From positions 13,359-77,358 of the forward strand of contig JBHJOI010000067.1 in assembly GCA_050329935.1 (NCBI GenBank): DNA of 64,000 nt, written 5' to 3'. The notes below the pieces were generated by a model. The model saw nothing but the letters and a program-made list of their open reading frames with translations, searched no databases and had not been told where the DNA came from. Origin of the DNA: Thiotrichales bacterium (GTDB lineage: Bacteria; Pseudomonadota; Gammaproteobacteria; UWMA-0217). The number at the start of each line of letters is the position of its first letter. The first letter of the stretch is position 1. Below are positions 50,077 to 61,464 of the stretch, piece after piece. The position numbers and the translations under genes are program-made.

Positions 50077-50149
50077 GGGGCGGTAGCTCAACTGGGAGAG
50101 CGTCGCGTTCGCAATGCGAAGGTCGGGAGTTCGATCCTCCTCCGCACTA
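50077..50149 (+). tRNA. tRNA, anticodon CGC (Ala) by manual cloverleaf folding; 73 nt, no encoded CCA
   Basis: D-arm GCTC-AACTGGGA-GAGC, anticodon arm TCGCG-TTCGCAA-TGCGA, T-arm GGGAG-TTCGATC-CTCCT. The acceptor stem has a G3-A70 mismatch and a G1-U72 pair (see findings). Confidence 0.6.
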
Positions 50150-50152
50150 TTC

Positions 50153-50184
50153 AAAAAACCAACCGTTCTCGGTTGGTTTTTTTT
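50153..50184. terminator. Strong bidirectional rho-independent terminator AAAAAACCAACCG-TTCT-CGGTTGGTTTTTTTT
   Basis: 13-bp perfect stem with a tetraloop, flanked by an A-run and a T-run. Lies immediately 3' of the tRNA. Confidence 0.75.
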
Positions 50185-50189
50185 GCCTG

Positions 50190-51029
50190 TTCCCCCCCGT
50201 GTTGGCGAGGGTTCGAGCCTTGCCGCGACGGACGTCGTCGCTCCGGACAGCCCCGTTGCGGGCGGGTTTTCTTTTTCAGTTCCCGCATTGGGTGTGCTGG
50301 TTCGTCATCTCTCAGGTGGGTGCGGGTCATCGAATGCTTGATCAGGTCGTAGCAACCAGCATCCGTGATGACCTTGACGACGTCAGCCTTGGTTTTCCAA
50401 ATGTACGGGTTCTCGATGGTGAAAGGCCCGCCCGCCACCAGCGAGACGATGTCCTGGAAGCCCTTTATCACCCCTGGGATGCGTCGTCCGGGGGGCGCGG
50501 CCACCGACCACTTGGGCGCACACCGGCAGGTTCAGGCTGATCACGCCGTTCTCGTTGAAGCGCACCCTCTGGAAGTTGAGCATCCGGCCAATCGTCGCGT
50601 CGATGGAGACATACAGGAATGACCGGCTGCGCTGGGTGTACTCGTGGTTCAACTCTTTGGTCTTGTGGACCTGAACGGTATTGCGGTGCGGCACGTTGTC
50701 GCCGGTTTTCTGCGCCAGCATCTTTTCCAGGGTGCGGTGACGTTTTTTTGCTCATAGCCTGCGAATCCGTCCGAAGATTTTCTATAAATATCAACGCCAT
50801 AATGAACCCGGTGCTGTGAGAAACACTCGGTTGAAAACTTCTCGACGATGACCGACGCCTCTCGGGTATGCGTTTCCAGCGCCGCATTGAACTGGGCGGA
50901 CTGATTCATCGTCGCAAAGCGCATTCCATTGCCAAGTTGCGTGTTGACGACCTTGCTCAGGAAATACTGGAGCCCCTCATTGGCAAGCGTGCTCGATTCT
51001 GCGTAAATCAAAATATCACCCATTAACAC
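50190..51029 (-). pseudogene. Degraded gene split across three reading frames (51029-50760, 50721-50383, 50504-50190). Fragments resemble the middle and C-terminal regions of QueC-family PP-loop ATPases.
   Basis: Fragment C: FQDIVSLVAGGPFTIENPYIWKTKADVVKVI, compare E. coli QueC [31 protein letters not shown]. Fragment B has VPHRN, compare QueC VPGRN. The three fragments are collinear on the minus strand. Confidence 0.4.
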
Positions 51030-51075
51030 CCATTCCGACGCTGCGTGGCTTCAAAATGGGCGTTAATGGGTGTGG
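51018..51075. promoter_or_regulatory. 18-bp inverted repeat CACCCATTAACACCCATT / AATGGGCGTTAATGGGTG (one mismatch) with a 22-bp spacer, in the divergent region upstream of fic
   Basis: Seen directly. Overlaps the first in-frame ATG of the fic ORF. Confidence 0.4.
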
Positions 51076-51085
51076 TTTTGGTTGC

Positions 51086-58015: not shown

Positions 58016-59190
58016 CCTGGACCACGCCCCGGGAACTCAAGGCACAGCTCGCGCGACTGTGGACGCGGGGGGAATTGCTGCGCGACGTCGTGACCGGAAA
58101 CACGCGCTTCCCATTGCGGCTGACTTGCAAGGGTCCAGGCTCGGCGGACATCACGGATCGTTTCGATCGGGTGCGCGCGTGGGCAACGGAGCTGGCGAGC
58201 GCCGCCCCGTTGCGGGTGGAGTGGCAGGACGTGCGTCACCGGGTTCAAGGCGCGCAACGCTTGCCGAGTAGCGTTTGGATCGACTCGGCGGAGCGCGCGG
58301 TCGCATGGCTCGGGAAACTGCGCGACTGGGAACGCTTTGCCAACCAGGTCGAGCAGACGCGGCAACTTGAACCCTTGCTATTGCCCTGGCTCGCGAAGCG
58401 TCCCCTGCAAGCACTGGAACGGGTCGACGAGTGGCCGCGTCTGATGGCGGTGGTGGACTGGCTCAAGCGCCATCCGCGGCCGGATATCTATTTGCGTCAA
58501 GTCGAATTGCCCGGCGTGCACAGCAAATTCATCGAGGCTCATCGCGCGGTGTTGAGCGAGTTGCTCGACCTGGCCTTGCCCGCCGCCTGCGTGGATGCCG
58601 CGAAAACCGGGGCCAGCCAGTTTGCGGCCCGATACGGCTTTCGCGAGAAGCCCGCTCGGATTCGCTTCCGAATACTCGACCCAGGGATTCCATGCGTGCC
58701 GGGTGCCCCCTGTCCCGATCTCACGCTCGACGCCGAGAGCTTTAGCCGGCTCGCGCTCGAGGTTCAGCGGGTGCTGATCACCGAGAATGAAACCAACTTT
58801 CTCGCGTTGCCCAACGTCACCGGAGCGATCGCCATCTTCGGGGCTGGATACGGTTGGGATACCTTGGCGCGAGCCCGCTGGCTGACGCGGTGCGCGATCC
58901 ACTATTGGGGCGATATCGATACCCACGGGTTCGCGATCCTGGATCAATTGCGAGGTCATTTTGGCCACGTCAGATCGCTGTTGATGGACCGCGCCACCCT
59001 GGAGGCGCATGCGGCCAGTTGGGGAATCGAAGATCGGCCGCTGCGCGTCGATTTGCATCGGTTGACGCCGGAGGAACTCGATTTGTACGACGAACTGCGC
59101 GACAACCGCATCCGCAAGGGGCTGCGGTTGGAGCAGGAACACCTCGGCTTTGGCTGGGTACGCGACCGGCTCGATCGGCTATCGTGGTGA
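58012..59190 (+). CDS. jetD: Wadjet JetD-like (DUF2220, topoisomerase VI-A-like Toprim nuclease) protein, 392 aa
   Basis: Toprim-like [13 protein letters not shown] motif near the C-terminus. 4-bp overlap with jetC. Confidence 0.8.
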
Positions 59191-59242
59191 GCCAGGCTGT
59201 AACCGACCGTGACACGGCATGAAAGTCAGGCGGTCGCGTGAG

Positions 59243-59968
59243 TCAATACGCGCGAATCCAGGCGATGATGAACGGCACGAGTAGGGCGGTCGCAACGCCA
59301 TTGAGGCCCATCGCCAGCGCCGCGAATGCGCCCGCGACCTCGCTGACCTGGAACGCGCGCGCCGTACCGATGCCGTGCGCGGCGACACCGAGCGCGAAAC
59401 CGCGTATGGCGGGATCTTCGACCCGGATCGCGTTGAGTAGCGGACGCGCAAGCACCGCGCCGATGATGCCGGTGCTGATGACGAGCACGGCCGTGAGTGA
59501 CGGCAAGCCACCGATTTTCTCCGTGATACCCATCGCGATTGGGGTGGTCACGGATTTTGGCGCCAGTGACATGACCGTCGCGGGCGCGGCGCCGAGGGCC
59601 CAGCCGATTGCCAGCGCGGAGACGATCGCGGTCAGCGCGCCGGCGATCAGCGCGATCAGTAGCGGTATCAGCATTGCCCGCAATCGCGCCATTTGCGCGT
59701 AGAGCGGAATCGCCAGCGCAACCGTGGCGGGTCCGAGCAGAAAATGTACGAATTGAGCGCCGTCGAAATACGTTTTATAAGGCGTGCCGGTCACCAGCAA
59801 AACCAACAATACAATGGTCACGGCAATCGCAACCGGATTGGCCAGCGGGTTCATGCCGGAACGAGAGTAAAGCCAGAACGCCGCTTGATAGGCCAACAAT
59901 GTCAAGGTCAACCCTAGCAGCGGGGTCGTCGACAGATAAACCCATATTTGATCGATTGGCATCGGCAT
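59243..59968 (-). CDS. lrgB: LrgB/CidB family membrane protein
   Basis: Polytopic membrane protein directly after the lrgA-like gene. Classic two-gene arrangement. Confidence 0.7.
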   Translation of the reverse strand: MPMPIDQIWVYLSTTPLLGLTLTLLAYQAAFWLYSRSGMNPLANPVAIAVTIVLLVLLVTGTPYKTYFDGAQFVHFLLGPATVALAIPLYAQMARLRAMLIPLLIALIAGALTAIVSALAIGWALGAAPATVMSLAPKSVTTPIAMGITEKIGGLPSLTAVLVISTGIIGAVLARPLLNAIRVEDPAIRGFALGVAAHGIGTARAFQVSEVAGAFAALAMGLNGVATALLVPFIIAWIRAY

Positions 59969-60312
59969 TAGGGTTTCCCTCGCGCGAGCAGGGCACGCAA
60001 TACCCATGCCGTAACCACCAGTGTGAGCGCCGTGCTACCCACCAAGGCGGCAATGATCGGTAACCACTCCGCGGCGATCAAATCGCCATGCACCATCACA
60101 CCAACGCCGGCGGGCACGAACAACAGGGATAGATGTCGCAGCAAACCATTGGCGGTCGTGCGTAAGCTTGCGCTTGCCTCGCCGCGGAATATCAACGTGA
60201 CAAACAATAGCAACATACCGACCACGGGTCCCGGAATCGGTAATCGCAATAACTGCGCCGCGACTTCGCCAACGAGTTGGTACACCAGCAATAAGGTGAG
60301 CGCGCCGATCAT
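59968..60312 (-). CDS. lrgA: LrgA/CidA holin-like protein (114 aa, 4 TM)
   Basis: Size, hydrophobicity and pairing with lrgB. Confidence 0.7.
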   Translation of the reverse strand: MIGALTLLLVYQLVGEVAAQLLRLPIPGPVVGMLLLFVTLIFRGEASASLRTTANGLLRHLSLLFVPAGVGVMVHGDLIAAEWLPIIAALVGSTALTLVVTAWVLRALLARGKP

Positions 60313-60535
60313 AACGCCTCGCGAGACTTTAAAGCTTGATTCTAACGACTGCGACGACGGGATTCATCCGTCGCTGGCGGCTGGACGGCAAGCAGCGCAT
60401 CAATCGCGGCGCTGGGTCGCGCGCTGATTTGATCAGCGCTGTGTGATGGCGGTCAGGCTTGCTAAATGGCCACGCAACACGTCGTGGCCACCGGATGATG
60501 GCCTTGGCAAATGCGCCGTCAAATGGGCGCGATCG

Positions 60536-60883
60536 TTAGATCGTGGGAAGATTTTCGAGTTTGCCGCCGTTCTCGAGATAATCCCTTAACCACTTTGGCT
60601 TTTGACCTCTATTGGAGCTGCTCCAGGTCATGGCACGGTCTTTCGGGTTGTGATAAAGGACACTATCCGGTTTCGTCGTGGCGGCTTTGGGTTGCTTCGA
60701 TGACGCGGGTGCTTTTTGCGTCTTTGCGCCTCGCGAAACTCCGAGTTCATCGGCGGTGAACCCATAAATCTGAATCAGGTTGCGGGCTTCTTCCAATGCG
60801 CTGGGGCGCTGTTCATTGAGAATGCGGGTTTTCTCAGCGAGTAGCTGATCGATCTTGGCCTGGATTTCGTCGAGACTTGGCAT
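60536..60883 (-). CDS. H-NS/MvaT-like nucleoid-associated protein (about 115 aa from MPSLDEIQAKID)
   Basis: N-terminal coiled-coil. C-terminal DNA-binding motif TWSSSNRGQKPKW matches the H-NS TWTGQGRTPxW core (here RGQ rather than GQGR). Confidence 0.65.
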   Translation of the reverse strand: MPSLDEIQAKIDQLLAEKTRILNEQRPSALEEARNLIQIYGFTADELGVSRGAKTQKAPASSKQPKAATTKPDSVLYHNPKDRAMTWSSSNRGQKPKWLRDYLENGGKLENLPTI

Positions 60884-61464
60884 AGGTTTGGTTCGGTAAA
60901 TGGTTAAGGAACGATTGAAATTTTGCAATCGATTGTTGAACTGGCACAGTACGTGGATCGCGTCTTGCGGAGTAATCAGCGTTGGTCAACGCAGTATCCA
61001 TAAGATGCACGCCGATTTCATCCCGTGGCGGAAAGCCGACGAAAAACTGCATCTTCATGGAGTCATTAATTATAATTGACCGCGCAATGGAGCCGCAACG
61101 ATCCATGGGCTAGCGTAGCGGGTTCATTAGTTGGATGTCAACTTTGGCCTACGCCGCAAGCGCAATTCGTTTCAATTAGGTCGTGCCTCGGTCTGCCGAT
61201 TGCATTCGGCGAACCCGCGAGCGACCGAGGGATATTGTCCGAGCTACGGGCGATTGTATGATCAACGATGCGAATCGACCGCGAGACAATTCGTATCGCC
61301 GAATAGTGGGCCGAAATACCGATGCGTGCTCGAGTGCGTTGGAAGCCTCGCGGCGGCTGTTGTAATGCGGAGTGAACACCCTCAAACAAGTGCATTCATG
61401 GGTGATATCAGGCTCACCGGTGAATTGGGTTTGGTTAAATAACCTTCGCCGGTAACGATCAGGT

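Follow-up and report, generated by a model that had tools for sequence, protein, structure and literature searches.

Of 41 hotspots in Escherichia coli, 18 are located in transfer RNA (tRNA) loci, and in 68% of cases no mobile element can be detected in hotspot #37, the one preferred by Wadjet (PMC10121019). In Pseudomonas aeruginosa, the hotspots cDHS1 and cDHS2 adjoin a proline tRNA and the transfer-messenger RNA (tmRNA) gene ssrA (PMC10250203). Here we describe a locus that behaves like these in a 64,000-nt stretch of contig JBHJOI010000067.1 (hereafter the window) from an uncultured Thiotrichales bacterium assembled from a stromatolite metagenome. The locus resembles the E. coli and P. aeruginosa hotspots in its tRNA- or tmRNA-bearing core flank, in its variable, short and unrelated defence cassettes including Wadjet, in lacking a recognisable mobile element, as those hotspots often do, and in carrying cargo that varies between close relatives. 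Unlike them, it is conserved on its left flank (ffh-tRNA) only, has been seen in just two lineages, both from an uncultured clade of Thiotrichales, and has a damaged tRNA gene. We consider it likely that some 9 kb of this locus (50146-59190) represents a small chromosomal defence islet, built by successive horizontal acquisitions at a variable tRNA-linked position. A QatC relic, a SoFic-type Fic gene and a type I Wadjet operon cluster inside these 9 kb.

All three systems are of known kinds, and the locus presents no new system type or mechanism. QatABCD is an anti-phage system organised around the QueC-like protein QatC (PMC13376578). Fic proteins of the SoFic type transfer AMP, are toxic and bring about abortive infection; in E. 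coli the SoFic gene is closely followed by AS1, which encodes an antitoxin of 47 aa (PMC12249575). In Wadjet, the SMC motor JetABC extrudes DNA loops and senses small DNA circles, which are then cut by JetD (PMC10889018, 10.1101/2022.10.04.510915).

A first-pass annotation, made from the sequence alone, had listed a divergent ypjD-like/ffh pair, a tRNA, a terminator, a gene remnant, Fic, Wadjet, lrgAB, an hns gene and an AT-rich spacer, and had grouped the DNA 3' of the tRNA into one putative acquired island reaching 61464. Every listed feature is present at or near the coordinates it was given, and the DNA 3' of the tRNA does appear to be acquired, with its edge at 50145/50146, but the part that can be demonstrated to be acquired extends over about 9 kb, to 59190, and not to 61464. 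Gene calls were checked with Pfam, PADLOC, NCBIfam, ARAGORN and Rfam, which gave the following features for the tRNA and the islet (+, forward strand; −, reverse strand):

50077-50149, +, tRNA-Ala(CGC) gene with replaced 3' end (ARAGORN; Rfam 55.2 bits, 3:70 pair flagged non-standard)
50153-50182, no strand, bidirectional intrinsic-terminator hairpin, 13 bp (fold free energy −17 kcal/mol, z −6.0)
50292-51029 (approximate), −, QatC-like (QueC-family) pseudogene (PADLOC QatC 7e-18; NCBIfam NF041925 1e-18)
51006-51083, no strand, imperfect palindrome with 36-nt arms CACCCATTAACACCCATT and AATGGGCGTTAATGGGTG, directly upstream of Fic (fold free energy −43.4 kcal/mol, z −6.6)
51086-52135, +, Fic-family AMPylase of the SoFic type, class II (Pfam Fic; PADLOC SoFic 1.4e-50, full length)
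52442-53911, +, jetA, DUF3375 (Pfam 2.4e-155; PADLOC JetA1 1e-224, full length; public call)
53931-54626, +, jetB, DUF4194, MksE/MukE-like (Pfam, PADLOC)
54623-58015, +, jetC, SMC-type ATPase (Pfam, PADLOC; Walker A GDIGSGKS at residue 51, Walker B FVVIDE at residue 1044)
58012-59190, +, jetD, DUF3322 plus Toprim-type JetD_C nuclease domain (Pfam, PADLOC; ENETN and GDIDTHG motifs)

The left edge within tRNA-Ala(CGC)

Relatives of the organism of the window (species A) are few. A search of 5.8 billion proteins with Ffh returned as related lineages only species A itself, species B (Ffh 96% identical; present in the same metagenome and as metagenome-assembled genome (MAG) GCA_050330555.1; loci L081 and L082) and species C (Ffh 87% identical; MAG GCA_964430355.1, locus L003), the remaining Ffh matches being at most 77% identical. 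Besides Ffh, core proteins such as RadA (94%) and CNNM (89%) place A and B within 88-96% amino acid (aa) identity, at about 82% nucleotide identity, and A and C share 74-87% aa identity in their core proteins (RadA 81%, MurJ 82%, and Ffh at the upper end). NCBI protein MGF1643704.1, encoded by a Thiotrichales MAG, has the same sequence as the window Ffh, and window positions 38667-60025 align gap-free and at 99.95% identity with a separate ENA assembly, ERZ909567 (run SRR3310977, same stromatolite metagenome).

The radA-CNNM-ypjD/ccsA-like-ffh block is common to A, B and C and forms the conserved left core flank. Between A and B, an alignment at about 82% nucleotide identity crosses ffh and tRNA positions 1-69 and ends at 50145/50146, that is, at tRNA position 69/70, where the canonical CCGC/TCCACCA is CCGC/ACTATTC in the window. 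The tRNA-Ala(CGC) gene of species B is intact in the same position after ffh and ends in CCTCCGCTCCACCA, as do the gammaproteobacterial genes at loci L014 and L015; these three other tRNA-Ala(CGC) genes share the terminal sequence GCTCCACCA, and the window gene ends in GCACTATT. Because five of the last seven positions differ between A and B, compared with a single D-loop base among the 69 before them, the break is a recombination junction and not the result of point mutation; the event at the left edge exchanged the final 7 nt of this gene for other sequence.

This replacement leaves a G1:U72 pair, a G3:A70 mismatch where G3:U70 is expected, and no encoded CCA. Alanyl-tRNA synthetase recognises its tRNA chiefly by the G3:U70 pair. 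Its loss to G3:A70, together with the missing CCA, suggests that the tRNA-Ala(CGC) gene of the window is probably impaired; a literature search for G:A mispairs at tRNA-Ala 3:70 found nothing usable. The tRNA was the sole match of the Rfam scan. The terminator that follows consists of A6, a 7-bp GC-containing stem and T8, and it is unrelated in alignment to the post-tRNA terminator of species B, which argues that it belongs to the incoming DNA.

The locus shares with integrase-mediated tRNA islands of the P4-like type the same 3' tRNA site and a junction in the 3' strand of the acceptor stem. The position of the junction fits an integrase-type crossover at a tRNA 3' end, yet the tRNA is not regenerated, and the locus further differs from P4-like islands in having neither an integrase nor an attL/attR repeat and in its mosaic cargo. 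No tyrosine or serine recombinase domain was found in any open reading frame (ORF) of 50146-62240 (Pfam, PADLOC and NCBIfam), and the small ORFs in the spacers are without Pfam domains. A second copy of the tRNA 3' end (attR) was not found in the window or in about 8 kb beyond its right end (locus L095, to about 72 kb in window coordinates) when the gene's own and the canonical 3' ends were searched on both strands with mismatches allowed (minimum length 11 nt for exact matches, 13 nt for one mismatch, 16 nt for two and 20 nt for three); the matches observed did not exceed the shuffled-sequence level. The first-pass remark that, by eye, neither an integrase nor an obvious direct repeat of the tRNA 3' end could be seen agrees with these searches. 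Lacking an integrase, a transposase and an att repeat, the islet is not self-mobile today.

Separate modules of the proposed islet

The QatC-like fragment is matched by only about positions 141-320, the middle, of QatC profiles 398-453 positions long, and scores 67 bits on NF041925 against a cut-off of 280. Its tblastn homology to a plasmid QatC-like protein changes frame near 50460-50477, and the frameshifts are identical in the ENA assembly. Neither qatA, qatB nor qatD was found at the locus with PADLOC or NCBIfam, which leaves no QatABCD system there. Judged from its coverage and its reading frames, the qatC piece is a frameshifted, doubly truncated relic of a Qat anti-phage system.

The palindrome between qatC and Fic contains repeated CACCCATT and AATGGGTG motifs and was the only element recovered in a general repeat search of the window. 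It is kept upstream of the Fic homologue on Paraburkholderia plasmid pBN3, and its right arm alone is kept on Mycetohabitans plasmid pBRH02 (by alignment). This conservation upstream of plasmid Fic homologues suggests that the palindrome travels with fic, of which it is probably the autoregulatory operator as well as the left end of the module. The left arm reaches into the opening codons of the qatC fragment; the Fic module thus came later than Qat and cut qatC short.

The Fic protein carries the catalytic motif HPFQDGNGRLSR at residue 197 and the inhibitory-helix motif STRIEG at residue 53, in agreement with the patterns HPFx[D/E]GNGRxxR and (S/T)xxxE(G/N), respectively. In these motifs, in its similar length and in its full-length PADLOC match it is like the SoFic single-gene defence proteins. 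It differs from them in three respects: it scores 69 bits against a cut-off of 550 on the NCBIfam SoFic model NF046030; its nearest solved structure is another Fido-domain protein, PDB 8uqu, matched by the C-terminal region of Fic across the full length of 8uqu (2e-36), with solved SoFic structures matching residues 167-287 only; and no AS1-like antitoxin gene is evident downstream of it. The gap between Fic and jetA (52136-52441, about 300 bp) contains unsupported small ORFs only and no gene in public assemblies. Close Fic homologues, with 81-83% protein and about 75% nucleotide identity, are encoded on Mycetohabitans, Paraburkholderia and Burkholderia plasmids (Burkholderiaceae, Betaproteobacteria), where they adjoin partition and replication genes; by analogy, this Fic may equally well have served to maintain a plasmid, or to enforce addiction to one, as to defend the cell.

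The Wadjet operon is a complete type I system of four co-oriented genes that overlap or abut (52442-59190), and the JetA1, JetB1, JetC1 and JetD1 profiles are near-fully covered (PADLOC). The longest ORF of jetA begins at 52385; the start in the public gene call is 52442. The operon agrees with described type I Wadjet (JetABCD/MksBEFG/EptABCD) in gene order, full-length profiles, the Walker A and B motifs of JetC and a Toprim-type JetD, and shows no structural difference from it. The ENETN and GDIDTHG motifs are those that we take, from family knowledge and not from a structure, to be the acidic Toprim-type motifs of JetD. The operon, a predicted plasmid-restriction system, is only 61-76% identical in JetA-D to the closest plasmid-borne system found, that of Thiodictyon plasmid pTs485. 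Nucleotide homology to the pTs485 Wadjet stops at about 59160, and the end of jetD at 59190 marks the right limit of demonstrable acquired DNA. A JetA search of viral contigs gave no match.

Comparison with species B supports acquisition. JetA-D of A and B are only 57-71% identical, and those of B are 74-81% identical to a Ralstonia solanacearum megaplasmid system, with 76.6% nucleotide identity across the whole 6.76-kb operon. Given core proteins at 88-96% and Jet proteins at 57-71%, at least one of the two lineages replaced its Wadjet, and the A and B operons are xenologues, that is, separately acquired homologues. A DUF3489 gene lies upstream of jetA on the opposite strand in species B (L082 10935-11195) and in Ralstonia megaplasmids (L094 7581-8129) and is not found in the window; it may be accessory to the Wadjet subtype of species B and Ralstonia.

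The genes from the tRNA to jetA are wholly different in A and B. In species B, ffh-tRNA is followed by small ORFs, a ParE-type toxin module, DUF3489, JetABCD and a TonB-dependent receptor, with no QatC and no Fic. In these two genomes the left flank (radA-CNNM-ccsA-like-ffh-tRNA) is kept and the right differs, being lrgAB in A and the TonB-dependent receptor in B. Species C has ffh-rpsP-rimM-trmD-rplS, the usual gammaproteobacterial order, and no tRNA, Wadjet or defence genes at the site; none of the islet genes is present in 80 GTDB loci around ffh. The alignment to relatives proposed in the first-pass annotation therefore confirms that cargo differs among A, B and C, but no empty ffh-tRNA-murJ site exists among these known relatives.

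These observations are consistent with a history in three steps. An older Qat system would have been acquired, of which only the qatC fragment survives; a solitary SoFic-type Fic with its own palindromic operator would then have arrived and overrun the 5' end of qatC; and a complete type I Wadjet operon, jetABCD, would have been acquired in a third step. The cassettes may have turned over through recombination after DNA uptake, or through integration by elements that later lost their mobility genes. By analogy with the known families, the JetABC motor would sense small circles for JetD to cut, resulting in plasmid restriction, and Fic would act as an auto-inhibited AMP-transferase toxin in abortive infection.

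The right flank and host-like composition

The genes flanking the islet, with those of the conserved left block, are as follows:

47703-48560, −, ypjD/CcsA-like cytochrome c assembly gene, divergent from ffh (public assemblies call a 269-aa version)
48667-50025, +, ffh, SRP54 (Pfam SRP54 domains; synteny with loci L003, L081 and L083)
59243-59968, −, lrgB (Pfam)
59968-60312, −, lrgA (Pfam)
60536-60883, −, hns, H-NS family, 115 aa (Pfam Histone_HNS PF00816, 27.1 bits against a cut-off of 25.6; start corrected to 60883)
60884-61464, no strand, spacer upstream of hns (581 bp; GC content 0.51, more precisely 0.513)
61465-62049, −, histidine-phosphatase-family protein with an N-terminal hydrophobic segment (Pfam; NCBIfam PRK06193-like match below cut-off)
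62240-63799, −, murJ, the right core flank (Pfam; 82% identity to species C)

An ORF at 47689-48585 (−) was considered for the ypjD-like gene and rejected as being in the wrong frame; it is the longest ORF there but is without a Pfam match.

The lrgAB genes had been counted as island cargo, and we also considered them foreign at one stage, since their named best matches are betaproteobacterial (72-77%) and matches at 84-85% occur in unrelated contexts. That assignment was dropped given the lrgAB genes of species C, which are 80% and 75% identical at the aa level, near the values for core MurJ (82%) and RadA (81%), and differ in their neighbours, lying between a nitroreductase gene and ispG. 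Such core-like divergence fits vertical descent, and lrgAB are probably resident genes of the lineage that were rearranged and not cargo of the islet. In species C, a gene for a 593-aa TIR-domain protein and the nitroreductase gene precede lrgAB (L100 4114-5895), so that a defence-like gene adjoins lrgAB there too.

The hns gene and the AT-rich DNA beside it had been read as signs of acquired DNA, a reading that species C does not support. The hns protein is a singleton at 90% identity, and its nearest homologue among about 15 billion proteins, as among 1.84 billion cluster representatives, is the hns product of species C, at 49%, with which the H-NS motif TWSSSNRGQKPKWL is conserved. The species C gene sits among core metabolic genes and has a 613-bp upstream spacer with a guanine-plus-cytosine (GC) content of 0.576, compared with 0.649 for its locus. 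The window gene and its spacer thus look like a divergent, lineage-specific copy, a resident gene relocated beside the islet, and the long AT-richer spacer is probably a property of the hns gene of this lineage, likely its promoter or regulatory region. Because species C hns carries a like spacer, the spacer does not mark foreign DNA, and hns was ruled out as a xenogeneic marker. The non-coding stretch first placed at 60929-61464 is real, and its extent becomes 60884-61464 with the corrected hns start; it matches no RNA family (Rfam), and its small ORFs match no protein domain (Pfam).

Window GC averages 0.613 (standard deviation 0.034 in 500-bp windows), and the lowest values, below 0.50, are found in two other spacers, at 14363-15106 (about 745 bp) and 34228-34728 (about 500 bp). 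These adjoin a multihaem-cytochrome-like gene, a histidine kinase gene and an FHA-like gene and have no Rfam match. Two comparable spacers beside ordinary genes imply that a low-GC hns spacer is not unusual for this genome.

Proposed as a check on the island, GC and codon-usage profiling was run and does not bear out an atypical composition. Fic, JetABCD and LrgB have a GC of 0.60-0.64, a GC at third codon positions (GC3) of 0.74-0.79 and a codon distance of 0.19-0.36, matching the reference genes (GC3 0.745 ± 0.05, codon distance 0.34 ± 0.12). Only hns (GC3 0.58), the phosphatase gene (GC3 0.615, low for the genome) and two spacers fall below the host range. With Fic, Wadjet and LrgB host-like and low-GC spots not unique to the region, we rejected composition as a test for an island.

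The proposal of one island between adjacent ffh and murJ neighbourhoods is not supported, given that species C has ffh-rpsP at the site and carries murJ, with an ABC transporter after it, on a different contig. Because ffh lies apart from murJ in species C, the interval is, by gene order, a synteny breakpoint in which an acquired islet also sits. Beyond the window end (locus L095), murJ is divergent from genes for ThiF and a polyprenyl synthase, an arrangement shared with species C. The phosphatase gene may be resident or acquired, no homologue of it having been found in any of the comparison loci. The near-universal ffh-rpsP-rimM-trmD-rplS linkage is broken in A and B and intact in C (L003 9560-11576), and the rpsP operon is absent from the window and from the 8 kb past its right end.

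Competing explanations of the locus

The first-pass proposal of a single insertion corresponds to an island of about 11.4 kb (50077-61464), placed by a tyrosine integrase in the 3' end of tRNA-Ala and old enough to have lost both integrase and attR. The homology break, which falls among the final 7 nt of the tRNA and at which the accessory genes begin, speaks for it: the passage of PMC10121019 that cites Williams 2002 has many integrases crossing over in the last nucleotides of a tRNA. The low GC3 of hns and the phosphatase gene relative to the genome mean also fits. We nonetheless regard this explanation as quite improbable, as neither an integrase nor a tRNA 3' copy was recovered to about 8 kb beyond the window, the nearest relatives differ from module to module, the truncation of qatC by the Fic module implies sequential events, lrgAB diverge from species C as core genes do, the nearest hns is that of C with the same spacer architecture, and ffh and murJ lie apart in C. 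A mosaic of separately acquired modules accounts for these findings better than one insertion. Vertical descent of rearranged core DNA, with a Wadjet ancestral to A and B and evolving fast, would agree with the position of Wadjet at the same site in both species, with the host-matching composition and with a local synteny so scrambled that lrgAB, hns and murJ have different neighbours in species C. It is very unlikely, and indeed largely refuted, in view of the greater closeness of the B Wadjet to a betaproteobacterial megaplasmid than to that of A despite core proteins at 88-96%; the likeness of Fic to Burkholderiaceae plasmid genes and the entirely different gene content between tRNA and jetA in A and B also count against it.

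An assembly chimera, in which the contig was joined at a tRNA common to two metagenome populations, was considered because A and B co-occur in stromatolite sample ERZ909567, share 69 nt of near-identical tRNA sequence, and are represented, in the case of A, by assemblies from a single run. Such an artefact is extremely improbable: the junction is identical in the NCBI and ENA assemblies, the 69-nt common stretch falls short of the k-mer of 127 used last in assembly, unique sequence follows the junction, MurJ (82% to C) and LrgB (80%) assign the right side to the lineage of the left (RadA 81%, Ffh 87%), and composition is uniform across the junction. We also entertain, as an unlikely though conceivable possibility, that the 3' flank of tRNA-Ala(CGC) is a dedicated exchange site for defence cassettes with no integrase of its own, at which Wadjet variants, Qat, Fic and toxin-antitoxin modules are swapped; the swap could be made by a recombinase encoded elsewhere or by tRNA-anchored recombination, and the chimeric G3:A70, CCA-less tRNA could be a tolerated or functional by-product.

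Five points weigh against the stepwise islet that we favour. Its right boundary is one that we infer, since the right flanks of A and B are not conserved; the polarity and number of events were judged from few genomes (A, B and C); all species A assemblies derive from one sequencing run, SRR3310977; the defence roles are predicted ones; and the composition of Fic and JetABCD is indistinguishable from that of the host, which lends no support to recent transfer. The last of these does not oppose transfer, because the nearest donor-like lineages have similar GC.

Read as a defence islet, the locus would provide an example of defence turnover at a tRNA-linked hotspot in a poorly sampled, uncultured, sulfur-bacterium-related lineage from a stromatolite, in which sister species hold Wadjet operons of separate origin at one site, an earlier Qat fossil lies beneath the cargo and Fic is shared with Burkholderiaceae plasmids. 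For method, it suggests that acquired DNA may be fully host-like in composition, and that an H-NS gene with an AT-rich spacer is an unreliable marker of foreign DNA.

The window has a second variable spot, at about 38700-40844, on the upstream side of the gene for glutamate-cysteine ligase. In species A this spot contains genes for a methyltransferase and a uracil-DNA-glycosylase-family protein; in species B its counterpart contains a toxin-antitoxin pair, VapBC, along with further small genes, and A-B nucleotide homology starts only at 40844.

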